Source: Escherichia coli | GTDB taxonomy: Bacteria > Pseudomonadota > Gammaproteobacteria > Enterobacterales > Enterobacteriaceae | Assembly (NCBI RefSeq): GCF_022846255.1 | Contig: NZ_AP025682.1 | DNA length: 64,000 nt | Strand: one strand, 5' to 3' | Shown: piece after piece, positions 13,644 to 36,960 of the stretch | Position numbering within the stretch: the first letter of the stretch is position 1 | How the letters are laid out: every line of letters begins with the position of its first letter | Notes under the pieces: generated by a model | Database searches by the model: none | The model's input: only the letters and a program-made list of their open reading frames with translations | What the model was told of the DNA's origin: nothing | Program-made: the position numbers and the translations under genes

Positions 13644-13829
13644 CTAAAGTCTCCAAAAAATTATTATCGGCAATGTCGAAACTTGCCGTTATATCTGCCA
13701 CCGGAACGGGGTAACAGAGTTTATGTTTTACCAGGGCGACCGTATCCTGCCGGAAGCGCTGGTTATTCACAATCGATTTAACACACCATTTACATTAAAT
13801 TTTAGTGCTCAGCGACACTATTTTTCATC

Positions 13830-14040: not shown

Positions 14041-14065
14041 CTTTCAGAACAACAGGAGTAATGGC

Positions 14066-17000
14066 ATGGGAACCACCACCATGGGGGTTAAGCTGGACGA
14101 CGCGACGCGTGAGCGTATTAAGTCTGCCGCGACACGTATCGATCGCACGCCACACTGGTTAATCAAACAGGCGATTTTTTCTTATCTTGAACAACTGGAA
14201 AACAGCGATACTCTGCCGGAGCTACCTGCGCTGCTTTCTGGCGCTGCCAATGAGAGCGATGAAGCACCGACTCCGGCAGAGGAACCACACCAGCCTTTCC
14301 TCGACTTTGCCGAGCAAATTTTGCCCCAGTCGGTTTCCCGCGCCGCGATCACCGCGGCCTATCGCCGCCCGGAAACCGAAGCGGTTTCTATGCTGCTGGA
14401 ACAAGCTCGCCTGCCGCAGCCAGTTGCTGAACAGGCGCACAAACTGGCGTATCAACTGGCCGATAAACTGCGTAATCAAAAAAACGCCAGTGGTCGCGCA
14501 GGTATGGTTCAGGGGTTATTGCAGGAGTTTTCGTTGTCATCGCAGGAAGGCGTGGCGCTGATGTGTCTGGCGGAAGCGTTGTTGCGTATTCCCGACAAAG
14601 CCACCCGTGACGCGTTAATTCGCGACAAAATCAGTAACGGTAACTGGCAGTCACACATTGGTCGTAGCCCGTCCCTGTTTGTTAATGCCGCTACCTGGGG
14701 GCTGCTGTTTACCGGCAAACTGGTTTCCACCCATAACGAAGCCAGCCTCTCCCGCTCGCTGAACCGCATTATCGGTAAGAGCGGTGAACCGCTGATCCGC
14801 AAAGGTGTGGATATGGCGATGCGCCTGATGGGCGAGCAGTTCGTCACGGGCGAAACCATCGCGGAAGCGTTAGCCAATGCCCGCAAACTGGAAGAGAAAG
14901 GTTTCCGTTACTCTTACGATATGCTGGGCGAAGCCGCACTGACTGCCGCAGATGCACAAGCGTATATGGTTTCCTATCAGCAGGCGATTCACGCCATTGG
15001 TAAAGCGTCTAACGGTCGTGGCATCTATGAAGGTCCGGGCATTTCAATCAAGCTGTCGGCGCTACATCCGCGTTATAGCCGCGCCCAGTATGACCGGGTA
15101 ATGGAAGAGCTTTACCCGCGTCTGAAATCACTCACCCTGCTGGCGCGTCAGTACGATATTGGTATTAACATCGATGCCGAAGAGGCCGATCGTCTGGAGA
15201 TCTCCCTCGATCTGCTGGAAAAACTCTGTTTCGAGCCGGAACTGGCAGGCTGGAACGGCATCGGTTTTGTTATTCAGGCTTATCAAAAACGCTGCCCACT
15301 GGTGATTGATTACCTGATTGATCTCGCCACCCGCAGCCGTCGCCGTCTGATGATTCGCCTGGTGAAAGGCGCGTACTGGGATAGTGAAATCAAGCGCGCA
15401 CAGATGGACGGCCTTGAAGGTTATCCGGTTTATACCCGCAAGGTGTATACCGACGTTTCTTATCTTGCCTGTGCGAAAAAACTGCTGGCGGTGCCAAATC
15501 TAATCTACCCGCAGTTCGCGACGCACAACGCCCATACGCTGGCGGCAATTTATCAACTGGCGGGTCAAAACTACTACCCGGGTCAGTACGAGTTCCAGTG
15601 CCTGCATGGTATGGGCGAGCCACTGTATGAGCAGGTCACCGGGAAAGTTGCCGACGGCAAACTTAACCGTCCGTGTCGTATTTATGCTCCGGTCGGTACA
15701 CATGAAACGCTGCTGGCATATCTGGTGCGCCGCCTGCTGGAAAACGGTGCTAACACCTCGTTTGTTAACCGTATTGCCGACACCTCTTTGCCACTGGATG
15801 AACTGGTCGCCGATCCAGTCACTGCTGTAGAAAAACTGGCGCAACAGGAAGGGCAAACTGGATTACCGCATCCGAAAATTCCCCTGCCGCGCGATCTTTA
15901 CGGTCACGGGCGCGACAACTCGGCAGGGCTGGATCTCGCTAACGAACACCGTCTGTCCTCGCTCTCTTCAGCCCTGCTCAATAGTGCACTGCAAAAATGG
16001 CAGTCCTTGCCAATGCTGGAACAATCGGTCGCGGCTGGTGAGATGTCGCCCGTTATTAACCCTGCGGAACCGAAAGATATTGTGGGCTATGTGCGTGAAG
16101 CCACGCCGCGTGAAGTAGAACAGGCGCTGGAAAGTGCGGTTAATAACGCGCCAATCTGGTTTGCCACTCCTCCGGCTGAACGCGCGGCGATTTTGCATCG
16201 CGCTGCCGTGCTAATGGAAAGCCAGATGCAGCAACTGATTGGTATTCTGGTGCGTGAAGCCGGAAAAACCTTCAGTAACGCCATTGCCGAAGTGCGCGAA
16301 GCGGTCGATTTTCTCCACTACTATGCCGGACAGGTGCGGGATGATTTCGCTAACGAAACCCACCGTCCATTAGGGCCTGTGGTATGTATCAGTCCGTGGA
16401 ACTTCCCGCTGGCTATTTTCACCGGACAGATCGCTGCCGCACTGGCGGCAGGTAACAGCGTGCTGGCAAAACCGGCAGAACAAACGCCGCTGATTGCCGC
16501 GCAAGGGATCGCCATTTTGCTGGAAGCGGGTGTACCGCCAGGCGTGGTGCAATTGCTGCCAGGTCGGGGTGAAACCGTGGGCGCGCAACTGACGGGTGAT
16601 GATCGCGTGCGCGGGGTGATGTTTACCGGTTCAACCGAAGTCGCTACGTTACTGCAGCGCAATATCGCCAGCCGCCTGGACGCTCAGGGTCGCCCTATTC
16701 CGCTCATCGCTGAAACCGGCGGCATGAACGCGATGATTGTCGATTCTTCAGCACTGACCGAACAAGTCGTAATAGATGTGCTGGCCTCGGCGTTCGACAG
16801 TGCAGGTCAGCGTTGTTCGGCACTGCGCGTGCTGTGCCTGCAAGATGAGATTGCCGACCACACGCTGAAAATGCTGCGCGGCGCAATGGCCGAATGCCGG
16901 ATGGGTAATCCGGGTCGCCTGACCACCGATATCGGTCCGGTGATTGATAGCGAAGCGAAAGCCAATATCGAGCGTCATATTCAGACCATGCGTAGTAAAG

Positions 17001-18028
17001 GCCGTCAGGTGTTCCAGGCGGTGCGGGAAAACAGCGAAGATGCCCGTGAATGGCAAAGCGGCACCTTTGTCGCTCCGACGCTGATCGAACTGGATGACTT
17101 TGCCGAATTACAAAAAGAGGTCTTTGGTCCGGTGTTGCATGTGGTGCGTTACAACCGTAACCAGCTGCCGGCGCTGATCGAGCAGATTAACGCTTCCGGT
17201 TATGGTCTGACGCTTGGCGTCCATACGCGCATTGATGAAACCATCGCCCAGGTCACTGGCTCGGCGCATGTCGGTAATCTGTACGTTAACCGTAATATGG
17301 TGGGCGCGGTGGTTGGGGTGCAACCGTTCGGCGGCGAAGGGTTGTCCGGTACCGGGCCGAAAGCAGGCGGTCCGCTCTATCTCTACCGTCTGCTGGCGAA
17401 TCGCCCGGAAAGTGCGCTGGCGGTGACGCTCGCGCGTCAGGATGCGGAGTATCCGGTCGATGCGCAGTTGAAAGCCGCATTGACTCAGCCGCTAAATGCA
17501 CTGCGGGAATGGGCGGCAAACCGTCCAGAATTGCAGGCGTTATGTACGCAATATGGCGAGTTGGCGCAGGCAGGAACACAACGATTGTTGCCAGGGCCGA
17601 CGGGTGAACGCAACACCTGGACGCTGCTGCCGCGTGAGCGCGTGTTGTGTATTGCGGATGATGAACAGGATGCGCTGACTCAGCTCGCCGCCGTGCTGGC
17701 GGTGGGTAGCCAGGTGCTGTGGCCGGATGATGCGCTGCATCGTCAGTTAGTGAAGGCATTGCCATCGGCAGTCAGCGAACGTATTCAACTGGCGAAAGCG
17801 GAAAATATAACCGCTCAACCGTTTGATGCGGTGATCTTCCACGGTGATTCGGATCAGCTTCGCGCATTGTGTGAAGCCGTTGCCGCGCGGGATGGTGCAA
17901 TTGTTTCGGTGCAGGGTTTTGCCCGTGGCGAAAGCAATATCCTTCTGGAACGGCTGTATATCGAGCGTTCGCTGAGTGTGAATACCGCTGCTGCTGGCGG
18001 TAACGCCAGTTTAATGACGATCGGTTAA
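14066..18028 (+). CDS. putA: Bifunctional proline dehydrogenase/P5C dehydrogenase and transcriptional repressor PutA
   Basis: The track ORF begins at 14000. The conserved start is MGTTTMGVKLDD at 14066, giving 1320 aa with an N-terminal ribbon-helix-helix, a PRODH domain and an ALDH domain. Confidence 0.95.
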   Translation: MGTTTMGVKLDDATRERIKSAATRIDRTPHWLIKQAIFSYLEQLENSDTLPELPALLSGAANESDEAPTPAEEPHQPFLDFAEQILPQSVSRAAITAAYRRPETEAVSMLLEQARLPQPVAEQAHKLAYQLADKLRNQKNASGRAGMVQGLLQEFSLSSQEGVALMCLAEALLRIPDKATRDALIRDKISNGNWQSHIGRSPSLFVNAATWGLLFTGKLVSTHNEASLSRSLNRIIGKSGEPLIRKGVDMAMRLMGEQFVTGETIAEALANARKLEEKGFRYSYDMLGEAALTAADAQAYMVSYQQAIHAIGKASNGRGIYEGPGISIKLSALHPRYSRAQYDRVMEELYPRLKSLTLLARQYDIGINIDAEEADRLEISLDLLEKLCFEPELAGWNGIGFVIQAYQKRCPLVIDYLIDLATRSRRRLMIRLVKGAYWDSEIKRAQMDGLEGYPVYTRKVYTDVSYLACAKKLLAVPNLIYPQFATHNAHTLAAIYQLAGQNYYPGQYEFQCLHGMGEPLYEQVTGKVADGKLNRPCRIYAPVGTHETLLAYLVRRLLENGANTSFVNRIADTSLPLDELVADPVTAVEKLAQQEGQTGLPHPKIPLPRDLYGHGRDNSAGLDLANEHRLSSLSSALLNSALQKWQSLPMLEQSVAAGEMSPVINPAEPKDIVGYVREATPREVEQALESAVNNAPIWFATPPAERAAILHRAAVLMESQMQQLIGILVREAGKTFSNAIAEVREAVDFLHYYAGQVRDDFANETHRPLGPVVCISPWNFPLAIFTGQIAAALAAGNSVLAKPAEQTPLIAAQGIAILLEAGVPPGVVQLLPGRGETVGAQLTGDDRVRGVMFTGSTEVATLLQRNIASRLDAQGRPIPLIAETGGMNAMIVDSSALTEQVVIDVLASAFDSAGQRCSALRVLCLQDEIADHTLKMLRGAMAECRMGNPGRLTTDIGPVIDSEAKANIERHIQTMRSKGRQVFQAVRENSEDAREWQSGTFVAPTLIELDDFAELQKEVFGPVLHVVRYNRNQLPALIEQINASGYGLTLGVHTRIDETIAQVTGSAHVGNLYVNRNMVGAVVGVQPFGGEGLSGTGPKAGGPLYLYRLLANRPESALAVTLARQDAEYPVDAQLKAALTQPLNALREWAANRPELQALCTQYGELAQAGTQRLLPGPTGERNTWTLLPRERVLCIADDEQDALTQLAAVLAVGSQVLWPDDALHRQLVKALPSAVSERIQLAKAENITAQPFDAVIFHGDSDQLRALCEAVAARDGAIVSVQGFARGESNILLERLYIERSLSVNTAAAGGNASLMTIG

Positions 18029-18067
18029 ACAGGTAGCCGGAGGATGTTACAACCTCCTCCGGCATCT

Positions 18068-18706
18068 TTAACGTGGTCGAATCCCCTCAATAATAATCCG
18101 CTGCACGTTTTCAACCGTTTGATTGAAAAACACCTCATCGCGCAACGTCGCGCCTGTCACCGCCTCCACCTGAGGGGCAAAATCGGCGTAATGTTGAGTG
18201 GAAGCCCAAATCATAAAAATCAAATGCTGCGGGTCAATCGGCGCGAGTTTGCCGCTTTTAACCCAACCGGCAATGAGCGCCGATTTCTCATCAATTAATG
18301 CCTTCAAATCGCCCGTCAGTTCATCCATTAACAGCGGTGCACCTGCCAGCATCTCCATACAGAACAGGCGCGAAGCCTGCGGATAATCGCGGGAAACTTC
18401 CAGCTTCAGACGGATGTATTCTTTGATCGCCGCCAGCGGGGCGAAATCTTCTCGAAACGCTTTTAACGGTGCCAGCCAGATATCGAGAATCTGCCGCAGT
18501 ACGGCTATATACAGCGCCTCTTTTGACGGAAAGTAATACAGCAGATTGGTTTTTGAAACACCCGCCAACTCCGCGATCTGCTCCAGCCTTGTGCCGTGAA
18601 AACCGAATTGTGAAAAAGTGTCCAGTGCTGCGCTAAGAATCGCTTTTTTCTTCGCGCTTACTGCGCGCGAACGCTTACCCGTTGTTTTCACTGCGCCTTG
18701 CGTCAT
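18068..18706 (-). CDS. rutR: TetR-family pyrimidine utilization regulator RutR
   Basis: The start is the internal MTQGAVKTTGKR, giving 212 aa with a TetR HTH (LEQIAELAGVSKTNLLYYFPSKEALY); divergent from rutA. Confidence 0.9.
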   Translation of the reverse strand: MTQGAVKTTGKRSRAVSAKKKAILSAALDTFSQFGFHGTRLEQIAELAGVSKTNLLYYFPSKEALYIAVLRQILDIWLAPLKAFREDFAPLAAIKEYIRLKLEVSRDYPQASRLFCMEMLAGAPLLMDELTGDLKALIDEKSALIAGWVKSGKLAPIDPQHLIFMIWASTQHYADFAPQVEAVTGATLRDEVFFNQTVENVQRIIIEGIRPR

Positions 18707-18812
18707 GCGCTCTCCCCTCTTGTTGATTGGCAACAGGATAGCAAAACCCCCGCCCGGCCTCGACCTTCTGCACTCTCATCGCGCACGAATGCATGTTTTA
18801 TGTGCAACTGTT

Positions 18813-18828
18813 TTGACCGTTTAGTCCA
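18813..18828. promoter_or_regulatory. Candidate RutR operator
   Basis: TTGACCGTTTAGTCCA resembles the RutR consensus TTGACCAnnTGGTCAA and lies in the rutR-rutA intergenic region. Confidence 0.5.
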
Positions 18829-18892
18829 CTTTTTTTCAGGCATTTTAGACAACTTAACATTAACACATTAATAACATTCACTTTTTAAAAAC

Positions 18893-18908
18893 TGGCATCC
18901 GCTTTGCA
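18893..18908 (+). promoter_or_regulatory. Sigma54 (-24/-12) promoter of rutA
   Basis: TGGCATccgctTTGCA with GG and GC spaced by 12 nt, about 30 nt upstream of the rutA start; the rut operon is known to be NtrC/sigma54 dependent. Confidence 0.7.
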
Positions 18909-18936
18909 AACAAGCCATTACGCGGCTGAAAAGGAT

Positions 18937-20777
<1,841 letters not shown>

Positions 20778-20788
20778 GGAGTTTAACG

Positions 20789-21175
20789 ATGCCAAAATCC
20801 GTAATTATTCCTGCTGGCAGCAGCACACCGCTGGCCCCCTTCGTTCCCGGCACGCTGGCTGATGGCGTGGTGTATGTCTCCGGTACGCTGGCTTTTGATC
20901 AACATAACAACGTGCTGTTTGCCGATGACCCAAAGGCGCAAACCCGCCACGTTCTGGAAACCATCCGCAAGGTCATCGAGACGGCGGGTGGCACGATGGC
21001 GGATGTGACCTTCAACAGCATCTTTATTACCGACTGGAAAAATTACGCCGCGATTAACGAAATCTACGCCGAGTTTTTCCCGGGTGACAAACCGGCGCGA
21101 TTCTGCATTCAGTGCGGACTGGTAAAACCTGACGCGCTGGTGGAAATCGCCACAATTGCGCATATCGCCAAGTGA
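20789..21175 (+). CDS. rutC: Aminoacrylate peracid reductase RutC (YjgF/RidA family)
   Basis: 128-aa ORF. Confidence 0.92.
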
Positions 21176-21182
21176 GGCCGCG

Positions 21183-21983
21183 ATGAAACTTTCACTCTCA
21201 CCTCCCCCTTATGCTGATGCGCCCGTAGTGGTGTTGATTTCGGGTCTTGGCGGTAGCGGCAGTTACTGGTTACCGCAACTGGCGGTGCTGGATCAGGAGT
21301 ATCAGGTAGTCTGTTACGACCAGCGCGGCACCGGCAATAATCCCGACACGCTGGCAGAAGATTACAGTATCGCCCAGATGGCAGCGGAACTGCATCAGGC
21401 GCTGGTAGCCGCAGGGATTGAGCGTTACGCGGTGATCGGCCATGCGCTCGGTGCGCTGGTGGGAATGCAGCTGGCGCTGGATTATCCCGCGTCGGTAACT
21501 GTGCTGGTCAGCGTTAACGGCTGGCTACGAATAAACGCCCATACGCGCCGCTGTTTTCAGGTTCGCGAACAGTTACTACATAGCGGCGGCGCGCAGGCAT
21601 GGGTGGAAGCGCAGCCGTTGTTCCTCTATCCCGCCGACTGGATGGCGGCCCGCGCACCTCGCCTTGAGGCAGAAGACGCGCTGGCACTGGCGCATTTTCA
21701 GGGCAAAAATAATTTACTGCGTCGACTTAACGCCCTCAAACGCGCTGACTTTAGTCGCCATGCGGATCGTATCCGCTGCCCGGTGCAAATCATCTGCGCC
21801 AGTGATGATCTGCTGGTGCCATCAGCATGTTCCAGTGAACTTCATGCCGCTCTGCCCGATAGCCAGAAAATGGTGATGCGCTATGGCGGACACGCCTGCA
21901 ACGTGACCGATCCCGAAACGTTTAATGCTCTGTTACTCAACGGGCTTGCCAGCCTGTTACATCACCGTGAAGCCGCCCTGTAA
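21183..21983 (+). CDS. rutD: Alpha/beta hydrolase RutD
   Basis: Start at the internal [12 protein letters not shown], about 266 aa, with a GHALG nucleophile elbow. Confidence 0.9.
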
Positions 21984-21992
21984 GGAATTGCT

Positions 21993-22583
21993 ATGAACGA
22001 AGCCGTTAGCCCAGGTGCGCTTAGCACCCTGTTCACCGATGCCCGCACTCACAACGGCTGGCGGGAGCCCCCCGTCAGCGATGAGACGTTACGGGAGATT
22101 TATGCCCAGATGAAATGGGGGCCGACATCAGCTAACTGTTCTCCGGCACGGATCGTGTTTATCCGCACTGCAGAAGGAAAAGAACGTCTGCGCCCGGCGC
22201 TTTCCAGCGGCAATCTGCAAAAAACCCTGACCGCGCCCGTCACCGCTATCGTCGCCTGGGACAGTGAATTTTATGAACGGTTACCACAGCTGTTTCCTCA
22301 CGGCGATGCCCGCAGTTGGTTTACCTCCAGCCCACAACTTGCCGAAGAAACAGCGTTTCGCAACAGTTCCATGCAGGCGGCTTATCTGATCGTCGCCTGC
22401 CGCTCGCTGGGGCTGGATACCGGCCCGATGTCGGGCTTTGACCGTCAACACGTGGACGACGCCTTTTTTACGGGCAGCACGCTGAAGAGCAATCTGCTGA
22501 TTAATATCGGCTATGGCGATAGCAGCAAGCTTTATGCGCGCCTGCCACGTCTGTCCTTTGAAGAAGCCTGCGGGCTGTTGTAA
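21993..22583 (+). CDS. rutE: Malonic semialdehyde reductase RutE (nitroreductase family)
   Basis: 196-aa ORF. Confidence 0.92.
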
Positions 22584-22593
22584 GGAGCAAACT

Positions 22594-23088
22594 ATGAACA
22601 TTGTCGATCAACAAACTTTTCGCGATGCGATGTCCTGCATGGGCGCGGCGGTCAATATCATCACCACGGACGGTCCAGCCGGGCGCGCCGGGTTCACCGC
22701 CAGCGCCGTCTGCAGCGTGACCGATACGCCGCCCACATTACTGGTGTGCCTGAATCGTGGGGCGTCCGTCTGGCCGGTATTCAATGAAAATCGAACGCTG
22801 TGTGTAAATACACTTAGCGCCGGGCAGGAGCCGCTTTCAAACCTTTTTGGCGGCAAAACGCCCATGGAACACCGCTTTGCCGCCGCCCGCTGGCAGACGG
22901 GTGTGACCGGATGCCCGCAACTGGAAGAAGCACTGGTTTCGTTTGACTGCCGTATCAGCCAGGTGGTGAGCGTCGGCACCCACGACATTTTGTTTTGCGC
23001 CATCGAAGCGATTCATCGTCACGCCACCCCCTACGGGCTGGTGTGGTTTGATCGCAGTTATCACGCGCTGATGCGCCCTGCTTGTTAA
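22594..23088 (+). CDS. rutF: FMN reductase RutF
   Basis: Start at the internal [11 protein letters not shown], 164 aa, flavin reductase-like. Confidence 0.9.
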
Positions 23089-23108
23089 CCTCCTTAAGGA
23101 GACAGCTG

Positions 23109-24437
23109 ATGGCAATGTTCGGTTTTCCTCACTGGCAGTTAAAATCGACCTCTACAGAGAGCGGCGTGGTCGCGCCGGATGAACGATTGCCGTTTGCTCA
23201 AACGGCAGTAATGGGCGTTCAACACGCGGTGGCGATGTTTGGCGCGACGGTGTTAATGCCGATTCTGATGGGGCTGGATCCCAATCTTTCCATTTTAATG
23301 TCGGGGATCGGCACGTTACTGTTTTTCTTTATTACCGGCGGGCGCGTGCCCAGTTATCTCGGTTCCAGCGCGGCTTTTGTCGGCGTGGTGATTGCCGCGA
23401 CGGGCTTTAATGGTCAGGGAATTAATCCGAATATCGGCATCGCGCTGGGCGGGATTATCGCCTGTGGGCTGGTTTATACCGTCATTGGCCTGGTGGTGAT
23501 GAAAATCGGTACGCGCTGGATTGAACGACTAATGCCGCCGGTTGTGACGGGTGCGGTAGTGATGGCGATTGGCCTGAACTTAGCGCCTATCGCAGTGAAA
23601 AATGTATCGGCTTCGGCCTTTGATAGCTGGATGGCGGTAATGACGGTGCTGTGTATTGGGCTGGTGGCCGTATTTACCCGTGGCATGATCCAGCGATTAT
23701 TGATTCTCGTAGGATTAATTGTTGCCTGTCTGCTGTATGGCGTGATGACCAACGTTTTAGGGCTGGGAAAAGCCGTCGATTTTACTCTCGTCAGCCATGC
23801 TGCCTGGTTCGGTCTGCCACATTTTTCCACTCCTGCTTTTAATGGTCAGGCAATGATGCTGATTGCGCCCGTGGCGGTGATTCTGGTGGCGGAAAACTTA
23901 GGTCATCTCAAGGCGGTCGCCGGGATGACCGGACGCAATATGGACCCGTATATGGGGCGGGCATTCGTAGGCGATGGGCTGGCGACGATGCTTTCTGGCT
24001 CTGTCGGCGGTAGCGGCGTAACCACCTACGCCGAGAATATCGGTGTGATGGCCGTGACAAAAGTCTACTCGACGCTGGTGTTTGTTGCCGCTGCCGTCAT
24101 CGCCATGCTGTTGGGCTTTTCGCCGAAATTTGGCGCGCTGATCCATACTATTCCGGCTGCGGTGATTGGTGGTGCATCAATTGTTGTGTTCGGGCTGATT
24201 GCCGTCGCAGGCGCACGGATCTGGGTACAAAACAGTGTGGATTTAAGCCAGAACGGTAATTTGATTATGGTCGCAGTAACCTTAGTGCTGGGTGCGGGTG
24301 ATTTTGCTCTCACACTGGGCGGTTTTACGTTGGGAGGGATCGGTACAGCCACCTTTGGCGCGATTTTACTCAATGCGTTGTTAAGCAGAAGGTTGGTTGA
24401 CGTTCCACCGCCAGAAGTTGTTCATCAGGAGCCATAA
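23109..24437 (+). CDS. rutG: Pyrimidine permease RutG (NCS2 family)
   Basis: Start at the internal MAMFGFPHW, 442 aa, polytopic. Confidence 0.92.
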   Translation: MAMFGFPHWQLKSTSTESGVVAPDERLPFAQTAVMGVQHAVAMFGATVLMPILMGLDPNLSILMSGIGTLLFFFITGGRVPSYLGSSAAFVGVVIAATGFNGQGINPNIGIALGGIIACGLVYTVIGLVVMKIGTRWIERLMPPVVTGAVVMAIGLNLAPIAVKNVSASAFDSWMAVMTVLCIGLVAVFTRGMIQRLLILVGLIVACLLYGVMTNVLGLGKAVDFTLVSHAAWFGLPHFSTPAFNGQAMMLIAPVAVILVAENLGHLKAVAGMTGRNMDPYMGRAFVGDGLATMLSGSVGGSGVTTYAENIGVMAVTKVYSTLVFVAAAVIAMLLGFSPKFGALIHTIPAAVIGGASIVVFGLIAVAGARIWVQNSVDLSQNGNLIMVAVTLVLGAGDFALTLGGFTLGGIGTATFGAILLNALLSRRLVDVPPPEVVHQEP

Positions 24438-24519
24438 ACAGAAAACCGCCGGGGTAACCGGCGGTGATGGCGTTTTGACGAGCTACAGACAAAAATGCAT
24501 GCGTCATTGATTAGCCCGG

Positions 24520-24693
24520 CTAGTTGTCGCTTTTACCGTGACTGCTCTTGCCACCTTTTTTACCTGCTTCAGATGCGCGCTGCGGGTCATTTTTGAAATT
24601 ACCCCCGCTGTGCTGTCCACCTTTTTTACCTGCTTCTGATGCTCTTTCGCGGTCTTCTGCAAAATTGCCGGAACCGCCTCGATGGTTTGCCAT
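24520..24693 (-). CDS. ymdF: KGG-repeat general stress protein YmdF
   Basis: 57 aa (MANHRGGSG...) with repeated RASEAGKKGG units. Confidence 0.85.
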   Translation of the reverse strand: MANHRGGSGNFAEDRERASEAGKKGGQHSGGNFKNDPQRASEAGKKGGKSSHGKSDN

Positions 24694-25047
24694 TACTGAC
24701 CTCCGTCTGGGTATAGACATCATATTGCATAGAATTAACGCGGCGTATGGCGGCTGCCATATTTTCGCTACGTGGGACTAAGCTTAGTGAACTGACGCGG
24801 GCAGACCCGCGTTTGGTAATATCCTGCAACAGCTTCTTAGCGAGAATAGATATCATCTCCAATAATTATCCATAAGCCGCTCTTATGATTAAAAAAACGC
24901 GATGAGATAAAAATGTGTCATTTTGCGACAAAATTACGTGCTTGTGAAAGTTGTTATAAATCAAATAAGTGGTTGTGAAATTTGCACTCTGAAAAGGACG
25001 TCTTATCTTTAAATAAGTGGTAGCGAATCGCTACGGAATAGAGATAA

Positions 25048-25662
<615 letters not shown>

Positions 25663-25682
25663 TCTTCAACAGGAGGATACGC

Positions 25683-25910
25683 ATGCCAACTCAAGAAGCG
25701 AAAGCTCATCACGTCGGTGAATGGGCATCTCTGCGCAATACGTCGCCGGAAATAGCCGAGGCCATTTTCGAAGTCGCCGGGTACGACGAAAAAATGGCGG
25801 AAAAGATTTGGGAAGAAGGTAGCGATGAAGTGTTAGTCAAAGCCTTTGCTAAGACCGATAAAGATTCGCTTTTTTGGGGCGAACAGACCATCGAACGTAA
25901 AAACGTTTAA
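25683..25910 (+). CDS. yccJ: Small protein YccJ
   Basis: 75-aa ORF immediately downstream of wrbA. Confidence 0.9.
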
Positions 25911-25914
25911 CCAG

Positions 25915-25950
25915 CGACTCCCCCGCTTCACGCGGGGGAGTTTTCTGTTA
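25915..25950 (+). terminator. Rho-independent terminator after yccJ (convergent with the agp end)
   Basis: CCCCGCTTCACGCGGGGG hairpin followed by AGTTTTCTGTTATTT. Confidence 0.75.
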
Positions 25951-27189
25951 TTTCACCGCTTCATTCAATACGCTATCAAACTTATCCATTGGGCAAAAAC
26001 CGTTGGCATCTATCGGGCAACCGCTTAATTCCAGCGTCACGCGCTGCGCAGGTGCCTGCAGGGTTAACGCATCGGCATTACGTAACTGTTCCGCACTCTG
26101 GTACACATATTCAATTTTCATCAGGTCGCGATTGGCTTTGCTGTCATGCCAACGCTGGAAAACGATTTTGCCGCCAATCGGCGTGCGTTCGTTCTGGTCA
26201 TGCAACTGATACGGTTTGAAATCCAGCGCCGTTAACAGAGAGGCAATGTTGGAGTCGTGCCCAACTAATACCGTGATTTTCGGAGCACTGGTGCGATCGG
26301 TGACCAGGGCTTTGTCGATATAACTGACCAGCGGTTTCGCAACATTGCGCGCCACTTCCGGTGAGGTAAACAGGCTGTCCTGGTAACCGTTTTTCAGCTT
26401 CGACAACACCTTCCACTGCTGGTCAGATTTGATTTCTCCCCAGGCCACCTGATCCATCGGAAAACCTTCGTAGTATTGCAAAGTAAACGCATCTACCAGC
26501 GAGTTGCCGACTTTCAGCGGCCCGGAAACGCCCGGTTCTTGTTGATACTTCGCGCTAAAGGTATTTTTGCCATCTACAAGCGAACATTGTTGCTTCTCTT
26601 TACACGCAGGAGAATCTTTATAGTTAACGATTTGTTCCAGTAGCTTGTAGCTGTCGGTAAGCTGGAGTTTGCTGAGCTCTTTCTCCATTGCCGCCACCGC
26701 CTGTTCACTGAATGCGGCGGAATCATCGGTGATCACTGGGTTAAAGGTGGGGTCCATAGTGCCCATTTTTTCCTGGTGATGAACAGGAATATCACACCCA
26801 GGGAATGCGCCAGTAATAAAGAACTGCGCGGTCGCGACGGTGCGTTGCAGACTATTGGCATAGGCATAAACGGTGTCCGGTGGCGGGCATTCCCCTGATT
26901 TCACCATCCCCTGTTCTGCCAGCCATTCACGCATATAATGGCCCATATACACTTCGAGCACGCCCCCTTTAGTGGTGAGCTGCCCACCGGGGACGTCCCA
27001 TTCAGGCCATTTATTCGGCGTCGACTGCTCCAGCACACTGCCATTGTTCGCCAGCGGCGCACGTAAGTTATGGCGGCTCATCATGAGCACTTGCTGTAGC
27101 TGATAGCCTTCCGGTACGGTTTGTGCCTAAGCATTTGAAGCGAGTAAAACTATCCCTGCCACAGTTGCGGCGATTAGCGTTTTGTTCAT
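25948..27189 (-). pseudogene. agp: Periplasmic glucose-1-phosphatase Agp, interrupted by an in-frame amber (TAG) codon at position 22 in the signal peptide
   Basis: Reading from the ATG at 27189 gives MNKTLIAATVAGIVLLASNA, then TAG (27127..27129), then [24 protein letters not shown], continuing without further interruption into the 380-aa histidine acid phosphatase body (RHNLRAP motif). Confidence 0.8.
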
Positions 27190-27723
27190 TCCTCACACCT
27201 CTTTTGTTATCAATAATTAAAGAGTGTGACAGAAATATGTCATTTTTCCGGGAACAGGTTCGCAAAATGGCTCGTTGAACGCCTGTTTTTCTATATTCTC
27301 CTTTAAAAACAGGCAAGTTTTGACGCAAACTATGCCTGATTAGCCCCGGCCTCGTTTACGCCGCTAATGATTACATCAGTAGCTATAAAGAAAATCAGCG
27401 GCGTTACCATTACCAATAAAAAAAGAATGTGAGACTAATAGAAATGGTTTTTAGCACATGTCTTTATCATTAAATTGCATAACGATTTAAATAGTCGAGT
27501 TGTGCATTCCTTTCCTTATTGTTTAACTTGTAAGCATGAGCCAAAAGTTCAGGAGGGAGGTAAATAAAATATGTTCCTCCCACCTTGAGGCGACCTCCCC
27601 TCCGCGATGATTTCAATAACATATTCTGTGTTGGCATATGAAATTTTGAGGATTACCCTACACTTATAGGAGTTACCTTACAGGGGTTCCTTCAATTTGT
27701 GTTGATTTACGCGAGATAACGCT

Positions 27724-28644
27724 ATGGAATTAAAGGATTATTACGCCATCATGGGCGTGAAACCGACGGACGATCTCAAGACAATCAAGACCGCCTATCG
27801 TCGACTGGCCCGCAAATACCATCCTGATGTCAGCAAAGAACCTGATGCCGAAGCCCGCTTCAAAGAGGTCGCTGAAGCCTGGGAAGTGTTAAGTGATGAA
27901 CAACGTCGCGCTGAGTATGATCAGATGTGGCAACATCGCAACGATCCGCAATTTAACCGTCAGTTCCATCATGGCGACGGTCAGAGTTTTAACGCCGAAG
28001 ATTTTGACGATATCTTCTCGTCAATTTTCGGTCAGCATGCCCGCCAGAGCCGTCAACGCCCCGCCACACGCGGCCACGATATTGAAATCGAAGTGGCGGT
28101 TTTCCTCGAAGAAACGCTTACTGAGCATAAGCGTACCATCAGCTATAACCTGCCGGTTTATAACGCCTTTGGCATGATCGAACAGGAAATCCCGAAAACG
28201 CTGAATGTGAAGATCCCGGCGGGCGTCGGCAATGGTCAACGCATCCGCCTGAAAGGCCAGGGGACGCCGGGCGAAAACGGCGGTCCAAATGGCGACCTGT
28301 GGCTGGTGATTCACATTGCGCCACATCCGCTGTTTGATATTGTCGGCCAGGATCTGGAAATAGTGGTGCCGGTTAGCCCGTGGGAAGCGGCGCTGGGTAC
28401 TAAAGTCACCGTTCCAACACTGAAAGAAAGCATTTTGCTGACTATCCCGCCTGGCAGCCAGGCCGGGCAACGATTGCGCGTTAAAGGCAAAGGTCTGGTG
28501 AGCAAAAAACAGACCGGCGATCTGTATGCGGTACTGAAAATCGTGATGCCGCCGAAACCGGATGAAAACACTGCCGCGCTGTGGCAGCAACTGGCAGACG
28601 CCCAGTCGTCTTTTGATCCACGTAAAGATTGGGGGAAAGCATAA
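27724..28644 (+). CDS. cbpA: Curved-DNA-binding DnaJ homologue CbpA
   Basis: 306 aa with an N-terminal J domain (YYAIMGV...HPDV). Confidence 0.95.
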
Positions 28645-28949
28645 TGGCTAATGTTACGGTGACTTTTACTATTACCGAATTTTGCCTGCATACCGGCATC
28701 TCTGAAGAGGAGTTGAATGAAATTGTCGGTTTGGGGGTGGTTGAACCGCGGGAGATCCAGGAGACAACCTGGGTATTTGACGACCATGCCGCCATTGTGG
28801 TGCAACGCGCGGTACGCCTGCGTCATGAACTGGCTCTGGACTGGCCGGGGATCGCGGTGGCGCTGACGTTAATGGATGATATTGCGCACCTGAAGCAGGA
28901 AAACCGCCTGCTGCGCCAGCGGCTTTCCCGGTTTGTGGCTCACCCGTGA
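28644..28949 (+). CDS. cbpM: CbpA modulator CbpM (MerR-like)
   Basis: 101 aa starting MANVTVTF at an ATG overlapping the cbpA stop. Confidence 0.9.
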
Positions 28950-29100
28950 GTTTGTTGCCTGATACGACGCTTAACGCATCTTATCAGGCCCACAAAAAGC
29001 ACTGTTCCCGTAGGCCGGATAAGGCGTTCTCGCCGCATCCGGCAACTGCGCACTAATGCCTGATGCGACGCCTGCCGCGTCTTATCAGGCCTACAAACGG
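28950..29100. repeat. REP elements downstream of cbpM
   Basis: Two or three copies of the GCCTGATGCGACGC...GCGTCTTATCAGGCCTAC-type palindrome. Confidence 0.8.
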
Positions 29101-29102
29101 CA

Positions 29103-29702
29103 TTATCTTTTTTGGTAGTCACACTCCACTAACACCAGCAATAACTGGCTTAGTGCCGCGTAAAAACCAAAGCTGTCATACTGTCGACAACGCGCAGCAA
29201 ACTCTGGTAACCATTCCCGCAGCGCCGTCAGTGTTTTTTGCCGCAAACCGTCGATTCTTCGCGCAGGAACGGTCCCCTCTCCCAGCGAAAAATGCAGATG
29301 ACTCAACAACTCGAGATAGATCGCCAGATGATCTGCCGGTTCGTTGAAATTGCCGCTGGTCTCCATCCCTGCCTCAACTAACAAGCGTTTAATCTCTTGC
29401 TCGTCCTGTTTGTAGGCCGATGCATACGGCAGCGCCGCTTGTTTGTCGGTCATCAGAAACAGGCCGCAAAAGTCAGCGGCCAGTTCCAGACGGGCATCGT
29501 CACGTACTGTCAGAGTGGCAATACTGTTTTCCAGCCCATTCACCGCCGCAGTGAGCGGAGGTTCGCTTTTCAGCAACGAAAACCATTCAGCCATCTGCGC
29601 ACTGGCGATTTGCGTCAGTTGTTCATCGTCCAGTTCACGGGAGAACAACTGCGCCAGCCAGGCGTAAACACAGGCAATCTGTTGTGCTGTCAGCGTGGTC
29701 AT
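29103..29702 (-). CDS. torD: TMAO reductase maturation chaperone TorD
   Basis: Start at the internal [16 protein letters not shown], 199 aa, overlapping the end of torA. Confidence 0.92.
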
Positions 29703-32245
29703 GATTTCACCTGCGACGCGGGAACATATTCGCACTGCGCCACCATCTCCACGGGGCCGTTAAACGCCGTCACCTGCTCCACTGTTCCGTTGTACTTCTC
29801 AATTTCCACCAGCGTAGTGTGCGCACTGGTCGCCTGCGCCAGCTGCGAAGTACCGATGTCGATGGTCAACACGTTGGGGTTACCGTATTTGCACAGCGCC
29901 CCTGGCTCGCCGCCTTTGTCCGGATCGTACCATGCCCCTTCGTGAATTCGCGCCACGCCGGGTGCATAACGGTCAGAAACCACTGCTCCAGCCAACACCT
30001 GACCACGAACGTTAAAGACGCGTACCACATCACCGTGACGAATACCGCGCGCGCTGGCATCCTGCGGGCTAATAAATACTGGCTCTTTACCCGCTACGGT
30101 ATATTGCTGACGCAGAGTTTCCGACTCACATAACTGCGAGTGAAGTCGGAAATCCGGATGCACAGATTGCAGATGCAACGGATACTTCTGCGAGCCAGGC
30201 CCACCGTGGGAGCGTTCGATTTTCTCAAACCACATCGGATGCCCCTGACAATCGTCGTAGTTCATGTCGGCGATGGTTTTCGAGTAGATCTCAATCAGGC
30301 CACTCGGCGTGCCCAGCGGTTCGAGATCCGGATCTTCGCGGAATGCCTGGTGGCGAACAAACATCTGCGGATGGTCAAACTCGACGTACTCTTTGTTATT
30401 CCAGAAGTCATCAAACGCTGGCAGATGAACGCCGCGTCCTTTGCCCTGTTGTACACCTTCCTGCCAGATGCGTTTCAGCCAGCCCATTTCGTCCAGCCCT
30501 TCGGTAAAGGCTTCTTCGCGATTAAAGCGACGGCACAGCTCGCGGAAAATATCAAAGTCGTTGCGCGCCTCGAACTGCGGCGGCACGACCTGTTTCATGG
30601 CGATGATGCCACGATTGGAGTGGTTGCCGTACTGGTCGAGATCGTTACGCTCAAACTGCGTGGTCGCAGGCAGCACGATATCGGCAAAGCGGCAGGTTGA
30701 GGTCCACTGGTTATCTATGGCGATAACCGTTTCCAGCTTGCGCCAGCCTTCAATAATGCGGTTGATCTGCTGATGGCGATGGAACGGGTTAGTTCCGGCA
30801 AAAATACACATTTTCAGCGGCGGCAGTTTTACCGATTTACCGTTCCAGTTGATTACTTTCCCCGGTTCGAGGATCGCATCGATAAAACGGGCAATCGGAA
30901 TGGTGCTGCTGTAGCCTTTGTAGTCACTGTTGTCGTGAACAGGCGGAATCGACGTAGAGCCGGAGAAACCACTCAAAATAACGCCTTTACGCCCCGGCGT
31001 GCCTGCGCCGTTATAGTGCCAGCCAAAACCAAAACCACCACCTGGCAGGCCAATTTGCCCCAGCATCGCCGCCAGAACGACAATCATCCACGCCCACTGT
31101 TCACCGTGCTGCATACGCTGTACGCACCAGCCAGCAATAATCTGCGTTCTGTTCGCCGCCATCTGCCGTGCCAGCCCACGAATGGTTTCGGCATCAATGC
31201 CGGTCAGTTTTTCTGCCCATGCGGCATCTTTCGGCTGACCGTCTTTCTCACCCAGCAGATACGGCAGGAACTGCTCAAAACCTACACAGTAGTTAGCGAG
31301 GAAGTTTTTGTCGTACAGGTTTTCACTGTACAGCGTATGCGCCAGAGCCAGTTGCAGCGGCACGTCAGTTTGCGGGTTAACCGCAATGTGCTTCACATGC
31401 TCGCCCCCCAGATACTCATGGGTGGATGTGACAACCGGATCGATGCTGATGACCTCAATTTCACCGGCGGCGACTTTCGCTTTTAGCTGCTCGTAATATT
31501 CATAAACATCGTGATCCGGGCACCACCAGTTCGCTTGCTGGTTTTTCAGCAAATCGGAGCCCCACAGCACAATGGTTTTGCTGTTCTGCAATACCAGCGG
31601 CCAGGAGGTTTGCTGTTCATACACTTCCATCGAACCGACTACGCGCGGCAGGATCACCTGCGCAGCCCCGGTAGAGTAATCTCCGCCTGTACCAACGCTA
31701 TTACCATGCAAGGCAATCGCTTTCGCCAGCATCCCCGAAGCGTTATGGAACATCCCCGTCGATTGCCAACCACTGGCGGTCAGCAAGGCACTCGGCCCGT
31801 GAGTTTTCTGTACGCGTTCCAGTTCTTCATAGAACATGTCGAGGGCTTCATCCCAGCTCACGCGCACAAAACGGTTATCACCGCGCTGGGAGGTGTCGCT
31901 CAGATGGCGCTTACGTAGCCAGTCCACGCGTACCATCGGATAACGAATACGCGCCGCGTTGTGTACATGATCCGGCAATCCGGCGATCATTTTCGACGGA
32001 TATTTATCCAGTTCGAACGGTTTTGCTGCCACGAAGCGACCCTCCTTCACCGTCGCGCGGATAGCCCCCCAGTGCGACCCGGTAAGAATGCCCTCTTTCG
32101 AGATGACAGCCTCAGTCGCCGCTTGCGCCGCAGTCGCACGGCGCGGCGTTAACAATGACGGCCCCAGCATCCCGGCGACGGTTAAGCCGCCGAGTTGTGC
32201 CAGAAAACGCCGACGTGATGCCTGAAAGAGATCGTTATTGTTCAT
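29699..32245 (-). CDS. torA: Trimethylamine-N-oxide reductase TorA (molybdoenzyme, Tat signal)
   Basis: 848 aa with a twin-arginine signal ([11 protein letters not shown]). Confidence 0.95.
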
Positions 32246-33417
32246 TATTTTTCTTCCTTCTTATCGCCGTGAGCTTTACCTGCGGTGTCAGACGCATTCA
32301 TTTGCAGATATTTCAACAAGGTGCGTTCTTCACGTTTATCGAGGCTGGTAAAGCCAATCATGCCGTTGAGCGTGCCGATCCAACCGTTAGCGTCAAAGTG
32401 GGATATTTCCGGTGCGCCGTGGCACTGGTTACAGGTGCCGTTGTACAGCGAATCCGCATAAGCCCAGATCGGTTTGATATCGTTCACCATGTCGCCTTTC
32501 TTCATCCACGCAGTGGCCTGCAACTTGCTCCACTCGGTATTGGTGTCGGCAACGGTGGTTTTCTCCAGTGTTTTCACCTGCTGCTGCACATCACCACGAA
32601 TCGAGGCAACAAAGATGCGTTTACCTGGGAATTGGGTGAGTACACGCTGACGTCCTGCACTTTCCGTCCAGCCAGTGATTTCAATTTGCAGCCAGTCGCC
32701 GTCACGTTTAAGGACTTTCACTTCCGAAGCAGGCAGCAGAGAACCAGACGCTTCTTTATCGCCTTTCGCCGCATAAATCGGCTTAATATCAATGGAGTAC
32801 AGCGTGTCACCACTATCATTAGCACTGGCGCGCAGCTCATCGAACTGCTTACGGAAGCCACTACTCATATCCGGTAACTGGTGGGCAATACCTTTATGAC
32901 AGTCGATGCAGGATTGATTATCTTTCGCTGCCACCTTCATCTGACGCGCCGCTTCAGGATGCTGCTTCGCATGATCCATCGCATCGTAGTTATGGCAGGA
33001 GCGGCAGGTTGCCGAGTTGTTTTCTTTCATTCGCGCCCATTCACGCTCGGCAAGTTCCGCGCGTTTGGCTTCAAATTTCTCAGGTGTATCAATGGAGTGG
33101 GCAATAAAGGTCTGGTAAATGTCGTTGCTCGCTTCCAGTTTGCGCTTCACCATGCCTGGAATATCCGGCGGGATATGACAGTCATGGCATTCAGCTCGCA
33201 CGCCGGAGGCGTTCTGGAAATGCACCGACTGTTTATATTCTTCATACACCGGTTGCATACTGTGGCAACTGACACAAAATTCGGTTGTGCTGGTGACTTT
33301 GATCCCAACGTGTGGCAATACAATCAGCGCAATGCCAATCACAATCCCAGTAGCGACCAGCGCCAGTACCGACCAACGAGCACTGGGTCGGCGTAGCGCG
33401 TTCCAGAGTTTCCGCAT
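32245..33417 (-). CDS. torC: Pentahaem c-type cytochrome TorC
   Basis: Start at the internal MRKLWNALRRP, 390 aa, with multiple CxxCH motifs. Confidence 0.93.
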   Translation of the reverse strand: MRKLWNALRRPSARWSVLALVATGIVIGIALIVLPHVGIKVTSTTEFCVSCHSMQPVYEEYKQSVHFQNASGVRAECHDCHIPPDIPGMVKRKLEASNDIYQTFIAHSIDTPEKFEAKRAELAEREWARMKENNSATCRSCHNYDAMDHAKQHPEAARQMKVAAKDNQSCIDCHKGIAHQLPDMSSGFRKQFDELRASANDSGDTLYSIDIKPIYAAKGDKEASGSLLPASEVKVLKRDGDWLQIEITGWTESAGRQRVLTQFPGKRIFVASIRGDVQQQVKTLEKTTVADTNTEWSKLQATAWMKKGDMVNDIKPIWAYADSLYNGTCNQCHGAPEISHFDANGWIGTLNGMIGFTSLDKREERTLLKYLQMNASDTAGKAHGDKKEEK

Positions 33418-33465
33418 AATAGCCCCTGTAAAATTATGGTTTAGTGAAGCGATCTTAATGAGCAA

Positions 33466-33528
33466 ATATGAACAGCGGCACTGGTCAGGATGAACGGCTT
33501 ACGGCAGAATATGAACAGATATGAACAG
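33466..33528. promoter_or_regulatory. tor boxes (TorR binding decamers) in the torC-torR intergenic region
   Basis: ATATGAACAG, the reverse complement of CTGTTCATAT, occurs at 33466, 33509 and 33519, with a degenerate copy near 33488. Confidence 0.85.
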
Positions 33529-33546
33529 AATGAGTAAAACCCTCTG

Positions 33547-34239
33547 ATGCCACATCACATTGTTATTGTTGAAGATGAGCCGGTTACCCAGGCGCGATTA
33601 CAATCTTACTTCACTCAGGAGGGGTATACCGTTTCCGTTACGGCGAGCGGTGCCGGGCTGCGGGAAATTATGCAGAATCAGCCGGTGGATTTGATTCTGC
33701 TGGATATCAATTTGCCCGATGAAAATGGCCTGATGTTAACCCGCGCCCTGCGAGAACGCTCAACGGTGGGGATTATTCTGGTTACCGGACGCAGCGATCG
33801 GATTGACCGTATTGTTGGGCTGGAAATGGGCGCAGACGATTACGTCACCAAACCGCTGGAGCTGCGCGAACTGGTGGTACGAGTGAAAAATTTGCTCTGG
33901 CGAATCGACCTCGCGCGACAGGCGCAACCGCACACTCAGGACAACTGCTATCGCTTTGCCGGTTATTGCCTGAATGTGTCGCGCCATACGCTGGAGCGGG
34001 ATGGAGAGCCGATTAAACTGACCCGCGCAGAGTATGAAATGCTGGTGGCGTTTGTGACCAATCCCGGCGAAATTCTCAGCCGTGAACGTCTGCTGCGTAT
34101 GCTCTCTGCGCGTCGGGTGGAAAACCCTGACCTGCGCACCGTCGATGTGTTAATTCGTCGTTTACGCCATAAACTCAGTGCAGATTTACTGGTGACACAA
34201 CATGGCGAAGGTTATTTCTTAGCCGCTGATGTGTGCTGA
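33547..34239 (+). CDS. torR: Response regulator TorR (OmpR family)
   Basis: 230 aa with a receiver domain and a winged-helix domain. Confidence 0.95.
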   Translation: MPHHIVIVEDEPVTQARLQSYFTQEGYTVSVTASGAGLREIMQNQPVDLILLDINLPDENGLMLTRALRERSTVGIILVTGRSDRIDRIVGLEMGADDYVTKPLELRELVVRVKNLLWRIDLARQAQPHTQDNCYRFAGYCLNVSRHTLERDGEPIKLTRAEYEMLVAFVTNPGEILSRERLLRMLSARRVENPDLRTVDVLIRRLRHKLSADLLVTQHGEGYFLAADVC

Positions 34240-35240
34240 TAAAAATAGACCGGACGAAATCCCCCTGGTGACAGCGAGCGACGGATATGTTCGCGGTCGG
34301 CATTTTTCGGCGTCATGACTAAAATCGGTGGGCTGACATTATCAGACACCGATTGCCCCTGTAATTGCCTGATAGCCTGCTCAACCGCCAGTTCCCCCTG
34401 CCAGACCATTTGATCGCTGGCTGCCATAATCACTCTTCCCCGCTTCAACCCGCGATACACCTGATGTGAAAGATAAAACGACACCACGGTAAGCGGCGTT
34501 TTCAGGTTGCGCCCTTCCCCCATTGCCGCCTCTGCCGCAATGGCCGTTCCGGCAACGACGTCGATTTCTGGATGGCGTTCCAGCATCTCCTGCAACAGGT
34601 TACGCTGGATTTCAATATCGTTATCACCGAGCGCAATATCAACAATACGTACCGGGCTTCCGGCAATGGCTGCGCGAAAACCCTCTACCATCTCCTTACT
34701 GCCCCCGGCGTTATCGGGGCCGGGCATCAACAGCACGTTCAGTGGTTTACCGTGCGCCCATTGCACCAGATATCGCCCTGGTTGATAGCCCATCTGAAAC
34801 CAGGGCACACCAACGCGGCTTTTCACCTGGGGAGCATCAATAGCATTCACCAGTTCGATCACCGGCAGATTTGCTACCTGCTTTTGCAGATCGGGAAATG
34901 ACGTCGTGCTACTACCGAGCAAAATGGCCTCTGCGCCCCACTGTTTACATTGGTCGATTTGTGCTTGCTGGGTAGCCAACTGGCTGTAGCCGCCTGCCTC
35001 CAGCACTTTTAAATCCACACCGTAGCGGCGAGCAGCCTCCTGCATACCATAGTTCAACGATAACCAGTATGAATCTTTCAGGCTGGGATAAAGCGCGCAC
35101 AGTTTCCATGCGCGTTTGGCTTTAAGCGGCGTAGAGGCTTGCACCGTGTAATGCTGCGCATCATGCCAGCGCAACAGGTTATCAGCCGAAAATGCCGATA
35201 ACATGAAAAGGGAAAGAAGTAAAAATAGCAGTACGCGCAT
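34212..35240 (-). CDS. torT: Periplasmic TMAO-binding protein TorT
   Basis: 342-aa ORF with a signal peptide. Confidence 0.93.
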   Translation of the reverse strand: MRVLLFLLLSLFMLSAFSADNLLRWHDAQHYTVQASTPLKAKRAWKLCALYPSLKDSYWLSLNYGMQEAARRYGVDLKVLEAGGYSQLATQQAQIDQCKQWGAEAILLGSSTTSFPDLQKQVANLPVIELVNAIDAPQVKSRVGVPWFQMGYQPGRYLVQWAHGKPLNVLLMPGPDNAGGSKEMVEGFRAAIAGSPVRIVDIALGDNDIEIQRNLLQEMLERHPEIDVVAGTAIAAEAAMGEGRNLKTPLTVVSFYLSHQVYRGLKRGRVIMAASDQMVWQGELAVEQAIRQLQGQSVSDNVSPPILVMTPKNADREHIRRSLSPGGFRPVYFYQHTSAAKK

Positions 35241-35766
35241 GATAGCCTCATCAATAATAAGGCTTTATGCTAGATGCATTCTGCTTTGCGACTCAACCTT
35301 TTTCACCTAAAGGATGACAAAATCACATAAATAATTTAAAAATCATAGCATTAGATTACTTAATGATTAAATAATAGACTGCAAAACGCGACAAAACACA
35401 ACATATCCAGTCACTATGAATCAACTACTTAGATGGTATTAGTGACCTGTAGCAGAGCATTAGCGCAAGGTGATTTTTGTCTTCTTGCGCTAATTTTTTG
35501 TCATCAAACCTGTCGCACTCCAGAGAAGCGCAACGCCTCGCAATCCAGTGCAAAGCTTTGCGTGCCCCCACTACGACCTGCATAACCAGTAAGAAGATAG
35601 CAGTGATGTCAAACGACGCAGCTGACTTCTTTTCTTTCACGACTTCCCCACACCCAGCATGCATACCTTTCTGCCATAACTGTAGTGAATGTCTGCTATG
35701 AGCGAGGAGTGATCATTAGCCTCTCAGCCGGATGCCTTAGAGTACGCCAGAAATAAAAGGATTGCG

Positions 35767-36960
35767 CTACTGCGCCTTCCTGTTTTGACGGGATGTGGCA
35801 TATGTCATCGCTACCGCTCCCAGAAGTAACAAACCACTTAAACCAAAAGCACTTCTCCATCCCAGACTGTCGAATACCAGACCTCCAGCTGTTGAACCAA
35901 GTGCAATAAATAACTGAATCACCGCAACCATGAGGCCTCCCCCCGTCTCTGCATCTTCGGGTAACGCGCGTGCTATCCATGTCCACCACCCCGTTGGCGC
36001 AGCTGTCGCAAGTAGCCCCCACAGGCTGAGTAGAACGGCAACAGCCCAGATATGGTGTCCGACCAGCAGTAGCGCACCGGTAATCGCTGCCATAAGCAAC
36101 GGGATCATGATTAAGGTCTTATAAAATGTGGTGTTCAGGAATGTTGAGACGATCATTGTGCCGACAAAACCTGCTACGCCTATTGCGAGCAAAATCAGAG
36201 AAAGATCAGAAGGTCCCACTCTGGTGACGCTCTCCAGAAAGGGGCGCACGTAGGTAAATAAAGCAAACTGTCCCATAAAGAAGAGTCCGCAGGCCAGCAG
36301 TCCCGTTGGTACGATGGCAACGCTGAACAGGCGAAGCACAGATCTCTGTGGCTTTTGTGTTTTATCACTTTCCATCGGAGGCAGACTGACCCATTGCCAG
36401 ATGAACGCAGCTATCGCAAGGGGGACCAGACATAAAAAGGCCCCACGCCAACCGATGGTTGTCCCCAGATAGCTACCAAGCGGCGCTGCTACAACGGTGG
36501 CCAGCGCGTTGCCGCCGTTAAAAATTGCCAGTGCGCGGGAAACCTGGTGCTGCGGCACGAGCCGAATGGCGGTTGCAGCCGACATTGACCAGAACCCTCC
36601 GATGACAACACCAATCAGAGCCCTCCCCAGCATATAAATCGGATAGTCAGGTGCTATAGTGATAATTATTCCCGATATGGCCATTAAGACCGTCAGTCCT
36701 AGCAAAAGATATTTTCGATCCAGGTCTCCGACAATACGGGAGATAGTCAGACTGGTAAGCACCGCCAGCGCACCAGAGACAGCAATTCCTTGCCCTGCCA
36801 GCCCTTCGGTAACGTGCAAATCATGGGCAATGAGCGTAAGCAGGCTGACTGGCATAAACTCAGAAGCGATCAGCACAAACACGCAAAGCGTCATGGCGAA
36901 TACGCCGCTCCAGTATGCATGCGTTTTTCCGTATGATTGTTTGAGACTTACAGTGGACAT
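35767..36960 (-). CDS. MFS transporter (12-TM, DHA1-like), strain-specific accessory gene
   Basis: 397-aa polytopic ORF with MFS signature-like GRALIGVVIGG; it lies where torS would be in K-12. Confidence 0.75.
   Translation of the reverse strand: MSTVSLKQSYGKTHAYWSGVFAMTLCVFVLIASEFMPVSLLTLIAHDLHVTEGLAGQGIAVSGALAVLTSLTISRIVGDLDRKYLLLGLTVLMAISGIIITIAPDYPIYMLGRALIGVVIGGFWSMSAATAIRLVPQHQVSRALAIFNGGNALATVVAAPLGSYLGTTIGWRGAFLCLVPLAIAAFIWQWVSLPPMESDKTQKPQRSVLRLFSVAIVPTGLLACGLFFMGQFALFTYVRPFLESVTRVGPSDLSLILLAIGVAGFVGTMIVSTFLNTTFYKTLIMIPLLMAAITGALLLVGHHIWAVAVLLSLWGLLATAAPTGWWTWIARALPEDAETGGGLMVAVIQLFIALGSTAGGLVFDSLGWRSAFGLSGLLLLGAVAMTYATSRQNRKAQ

Follow-up and report, generated by a model that had tools for sequence, protein, structure and literature searches.

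Does an in-frame amber codon within the signal peptide of agp, the gene of the periplasmic glucose-1-phosphatase, reflect a real loss of this enzyme in an Escherichia coli lineage, or is the codon an artefact, or a stop which the cell is able to circumvent? The question is raised by a stretch of 64,000 nucleotides of E. coli DNA (contig NZ_AP025682.1), which is called the window throughout. The gene order in this region is standard and reads torCAD - cbpMA - agp - yccJ - wrbA - ymdF - rutGFEDCBA - rutR - putA, as annotated in the loci L001 and L019. Translation of the minus strand from the ATG at 27189 leads to an in-frame TAG at 27129-27127, as the initial annotation of this DNA had noticed. 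On the coding strand the sequence comprises AGAGGTGTGAGGA followed by ATG AAC AAA ... AAT GCT TAG GCA CAA ACC, and past the TAG the frame is open down to a TAA at 25950-25948. Two features define the case:

25948-27189, minus strand: whole reading frame of agp, 413 codons plus TAA, intact except for codon 21

27127-27129, minus strand: amber codon TAG in place of CAG (Gln21) of pre-Agp, the sole mismatch to NZ_CP031215.1

The uninterrupted frame of Agp, comprising signal peptide and mature enzyme, is broken at this codon. Comparison with an intact allele places the stop at codon 21 and not, as first numbered, at codon 22, and the number of sense codons following it is 392 instead of 390.

To which gene the broken frame belongs can be read from a conceptual protein with Gln at codon 21. 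This repaired protein reaches 826.4 bits against the NCBIfam model NF007553 (cutoff 425, coverage 1-413 of 413), an equivalog for the bifunctional glucose-1-phosphatase/inositol phosphatase, and stays below the cutoff of the AppA model NF007552 (283 vs 585). Agp is a member of branch 2 of the histidine acid phosphatase family, and both elements of the RHxxRxP and HD signature are present, as RHNLRAP at residues 39-45 and as GHDSN further on in frame. Over residues 23-413 the repaired protein is near-identical to the solved structures 1NT4 and 6RMR (99% identity); in 6RMR the residue aligned to His40 (mature His18) is an engineered Asp. Since the chains of both structures, which represent the mature enzyme, start at precursor residue 23 (QTVPEGY...), the signal peptide corresponds to residues 1-22 with cleavage after Ala22. 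The stop is located at position -2 of the A-Q-A signal-peptidase cleavage site. The positions of these elements in the window are as follows:

27124-27189, minus strand: 22-residue Sec signal peptide (MNKTLIAATVAGIVLLASNA-Q-A), upstream of the first residue of the mature PDB chains

27055-27075, minus strand: catalytic RHNLRAP motif recognized in the sequence, in which His40 is mature His18

The well-known E. coli Agp (WP_001044300.1) and the window gene have in common the length of 413 codons, the locus cbpA - agp - yccJ - wrbA, the RHNLRAP and GHDSN histidine-acid-phosphatase motifs, the signal peptide sequence, and 412 of 413 residues, so that the conceptual protein equals the database entry apart from codon 21. 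In contrast to the E. coli protein, codon 21 of the window is TAG and not CAG, and normal decoding cannot give the full-length precursor. Judged by sequence comparison, the gene is agp by descent, though not intact.

The ancestral state of codon 21 was deduced from related genomes. A query of 1,321 nt, consisting of agp and 71 nt upstream, differs from NZ_CP031215.1 at a single position, with T instead of C at 27129, and the codon of this relative is CAG (Gln). The mutation is a C to T change on the coding strand and a G to A change on the plus strand. Over the same 1,321 nt, identity to the window reaches 99.9% in the best-matching complete genomes; the strains carrying the closest agp alleles, such as 536 and F11, belong to phylogroup B2. 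The gene itself is near-universal, at least 80% of the gene query being covered in 5,414 of 5,426 complete genomes. When 61 nt centred on 27129 were used as a probe, 5,368 records from 5,366 RefSeq complete E. coli genomes were matched, none of them exactly and 5,367 at 60 of 61 positions. An exact match to the allele was likewise missing from the GTDB species representatives and the JGI metagenomes. All 15 other examined loci covering the site show CAG, so the premature stop is found where orthologues hold a sense codon, and TAG was seen in two loci only (L003 and L027). The presence of CAG in relatives, together with the missing exact match in complete genomes, marks the TAG as derived and rare, and the lack of any second change in agp indicates that the mutation is also recent. 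Of the three readings which the initial annotation had offered without choosing among them, these results support the first, in which a gene without other decay was inactivated by a recent point mutation.

Both additional carriers of the TAG are independent sequence data, in which the lesion is thus reproducible. One is the GenBank draft GCA_005387665.1 (L003, contig BFRP01000187.1), which is 100% identical to the window over 15948-35312, and the other is a Logan assembly of the raw run DRR102846 (L027), which is 100% identical over 12067-28028. This bears directly on the possibility that the true base is C and agp is intact, the true codon being CAG and the TAG an error of sequencing or assembly. 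Such an error could be suspected because no artefact can be smaller than the substitution of one base, and because no RefSeq complete genome contains the allele. The base-call error named in the initial annotation as a refutation is not borne out: the draft and the assembly of DRR102846, which was made by a separate pipeline, have the identical TAG. Furthermore, the site lies in the context GCTCAGGC, which is not homopolymeric and contains no Dcm site (CCWGG). From phoH to torT, the remaining 25 conserved genes are essentially full-length without gaps or stops (tblastn with MS15236 proteins), which argues against an error-prone assembly in this region, and the draft is structurally unlike the window at 35312. 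An erroneous base is therefore hardly credible. A Dcm hot spot was also considered as the cause of the C to T change and was discarded, as the site reads CTCAGG and not CCWGG.

The structural difference from the draft is informative on the origin of the allele. In GCA_005387665.1, torS follows torT without interruption; in the window, the sequence from 35313 onwards is that of an island. The MFS protein of this island and its prophage J-like tail protein are not on record for the samples of GCA_005387665.1 and DRR102846. Taken together, this suggests that the window most likely stems from another isolate of this clone and that the allele was inherited, and by these sequence comparisons it seems to be common to two or more distinct genomes of one clone. 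In principle, the window and the draft might also derive from a single strain that was assembled twice, in different states of lysogeny; the base call would still be doubly confirmed, but inheritance by several isolates would then not follow.

The island occupies the remainder of the window (35313-64000), in which the usual torS context is left at the torS-torT spacer and torS is absent. Its junction is supported by two Logan assemblies (L006 and L007), and the segment 35000-43000 is not covered to 80% or more at a single place in any RefSeq complete E. coli genome. Three genes lie in its first part:

35767-36960, minus strand: MFS transporter, an ORF of 397 aa

37138-38289, minus strand: alpha/beta hydrolase

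38445-39332, plus strand: LysR regulator

The 397-aa ORF was at first regarded as a prophage integrase, an assignment which was rejected when a look-up identified an MFS transporter. Lambdoid prophage tail genes follow the LysR regulator. At 40218-41996 (plus strand) a protein of 592 aa with AAA and dCMP-deaminase domains is encoded, which matches the PADLOC dCTP-deaminase anti-phage defence model PDLC02373 (E = 5e-127). It adjoins phage tail-fibre genes in other genomes too and therefore looks like prophage cargo.

Some further observations concern the neighbourhood of agp. The genes pgaABCD, which adjoin phoH in the relative MS15236, gave no tblastn match anywhere in the window, and between phoH (7211-7996) and tRNA-Ser(GGA) (5754-5841) there is only an ORF of 228 aa (5933-6619, minus strand). 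Between cbpM and torD, the Rfam family naRNA4 (CssrE, nucleoid-associated RNA) was found at 29013-29091 with 81 bits, a known element. Among the relatives, rutG is split into 176 and 230 aa in L030 (OZ040287.1, 14116-15338), and torC into 158 and 231 aa in L002 (3806-4974). Such private lesions suggest that sporadic gene breaks are a common background in E. coli assemblies.

For agp, we consider it very probable from the sequence data that a genuine, recent and inherited nonsense mutation (CAG to TAG, Gln21 to amber) has made the gene a pseudogene in one small clone. The predicted consequences depend on the signals at both ends of the gene:

27190-27202, minus strand: native Shine-Dalgarno region (AGAGGTGTGAGGA), with a predicted duplex to the 16S 3′-end of -7.1 kcal/mol, unchanged from relatives

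25916-25942, no strand assigned: GC-rich terminator-like hairpin separating agp from the convergent yccJ, with yccJ and wrbA on the opposite strand

Within the 71 nt compared upstream of the agp ATG there are 0 differences from L001. Because neither the promoter-proximal sequence nor the Shine-Dalgarno region has changed, ribosomes should start normally at the ATG at 27189. At the TAG, RF1 would release a signal-peptide fragment of 20 residues. Translation of the remaining mRNA would not follow, which would probably leave this mRNA open to Rho termination and to decay, and essentially no periplasmic glucose-1-phosphatase/inositol phosphatase would be produced. The expected phenotype is a loss of growth on glucose-1-phosphate as carbon source. 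Polar effects on other genes are not expected, since agp is monocistronic, last in its transcript, and convergent with yccJ. In Rfam, no family overlaps the site or the 5′-end of agp.

Translation could also resume downstream of the stop. Internal reinitiation at GTG34, Met36 or Met37 would yield a cytoplasmic phosphatase without signal peptide, possibly with a new role, and an in-frame start codon is indeed available soon after the stop:

27079-27090, minus strand: candidate in-frame restart codons GTG34 (27090-27088), ATG36 (27084-27082) and ATG37 (27081-27079), 36-45 nt past the TAG

The 380-aa ORF of the initial annotation, described there as beginning at an internal Met, in reality starts with the GTG of Val34 (window 27090). 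The methionines numbered 35/36 in the same place are Met36 and Met37, as 413 minus 378 residues puts the start of MMSRH... at residue 36. Early amber mutations in lacI reportedly activate downstream restarts (Files, Weber and Miller, and Steege, in the 1970s). The present case resembles these restart proteins in that an early stop is followed, within about 45 nt, by in-frame GTG or ATG codons. In contrast to lacI, the restart codons of agp are without Shine-Dalgarno help: the anti-Shine-Dalgarno duplex amounts to -0.2 kcal/mol each for ATG36 and ATG37 and to -2.9 kcal/mol for GTG34, ending 15 nt upstream, compared with the -7.1 kcal/mol of the native start. The next start with a good Shine-Dalgarno sequence is GTG80, which is located beyond the catalytic motif. 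The predicted product would differ from lacI restart proteins also in lacking export and part of the first structural segment. It would be devoid of the signal peptide and of 11-13 N-terminal residues of the mature enzyme (13 for Met36), beginning 2-5 residues before the RH motif, and in the case of Met36 three residues before RHNLRAP. Folding in the AppA/Agp family depends on the formation of disulfides in the periplasm, and an enzyme with six cysteines should accordingly fold poorly in the reducing cytoplasm. The weak pairing and the missing signal peptide and mature N-terminus make a working cytoplasmic enzyme unlikely, and the cytoplasmic phosphatase made by reinitiation which the initial annotation had offered is, in our view, very improbable. 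Literature searches on agp pseudogenes and on bacterial restarts after nonsense codons returned nothing specific, and the review of restarts that was found is mostly eukaryotic.

A further point which might be taken in favour of reinitiation is that gene callers annotate a 378-aa product, the start of which they place at ATG36. This truncated product (MMSRHNL...) is on record exactly as GDA41723.1 and BDH33912.1. However, an exact match to the truncated protein is in itself no evidence of the TAG allele, since runs of N over an intact agp also lead to 378-aa calls. Three further exact 378-aa calls were dismissed as artefacts. In L002 (GCA_006232115.1), a run of N at 9928-10000 covers the 5′-end of agp, and in L004 (JGI 3300056410) the same is true of a run at about 1650-1700; codon 21 is CAG in both. 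In L005, the 378-aa call is due to the end of the contig. The genome encoding BDH33912.1 (4.94 Mb) is without the exact PutA of the window, and behind this entry there may be either the same TAG or a start that was mis-called. Look-ups of torT and rutA returned only widely shared contexts with an intact 413-aa agp. Entries of a 378-aa 'glucose-1-phosphatase' (GDA41723.1 and possibly BDH33912.1) should be regarded as pseudogene fragments and not as a short isoform.

The TAG might also be decoded as a sense codon. Glutamine-inserting supE suppressors are known to repair CAG to TAG ambers, and an amber suppressor tRNA in the clone (e.g. of the glnV/supE type with a CUA anticodon), as also proposed in the initial annotation, would place Gln at codon 21 and so give wild-type pre-Agp again. 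The lesion belongs to exactly the amber class which such a suppressor repairs perfectly, and nothing within the window speaks against the existence of the tRNA. On the other hand, positive indications of it are missing, the only tRNA in the 64-kb window being Ser-GGA, and strong amber suppressors are features of laboratory strains which are rare in natural isolates because natural TAG stops get read through. A suppressor of this kind is consequently highly improbable. The classical supE (glnV44)-suppressible CAG to TAG mutants are of the same mutation class, and there, too, insertion of Gln or near-cognate decoding by Gln-tRNA restores the wild-type sequence; they differ from the window in being laboratory constructs and not natural isolates. 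In E. coli, Gln is among the amino acids inserted at UAG by near-cognate tRNAs (PMC4333366). Such insertion of Gln at codon 21 would likewise recreate the wild-type protein, but only at a trace or background level while RF1 is present. That the clone keeps agp in use through a natural Gln-inserting suppressor or through unusually high near-cognate read-through of UAG has, in our opinion, very little probability; if true, the clone would be one of the few documented instances in which a wild lineage of E. coli keeps a gene working by amber suppression.

If agp has been inactivated, the loss might have been adaptive in the niche of the clone and not a case of neutral decay. In a study of within-host diversity, agp is listed as one of the genes affected in two patients, through a SNP and a large deletion (PMC7845604), which supports selection weakly at most. 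Against it stand the occurrence of the allele in one clone only, the retention of at least 80% of agp in nearly all complete genomes (5,414 of 5,426), the CAG in every one of the 15 other loci covering the site, and the lack of any sign of recurrent independent hits. Selected loss is therefore improbable.

The nonsense mutation in agp is best compared with the strain-specific nonsense pseudogenes found in E. coli. Like these, it amounts to one premature stop in a conserved, non-essential gene which is intact elsewhere, relatives retain the ancestral sense codon, and a truncated CDS is already present in GenBank. There is no difference of substance; the position of the stop inside the signal peptide merely means that not even a fragment of the mature enzyme results. 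It is an ordinary nonsense pseudogene, already known in kind, and not a new biological mechanism.

The finding has little importance beyond annotation. The TAG allele provides a convenient single-base marker of the clone. Because the stop arose by a CAG to TAG change, one transition would suffice for reversion under selection on glucose-1-phosphate. Metabolic models and predictions of phenotype should treat the clone as agp-negative, with neither periplasmic glucose-1-phosphatase nor inositol phosphatase of the Agp type.
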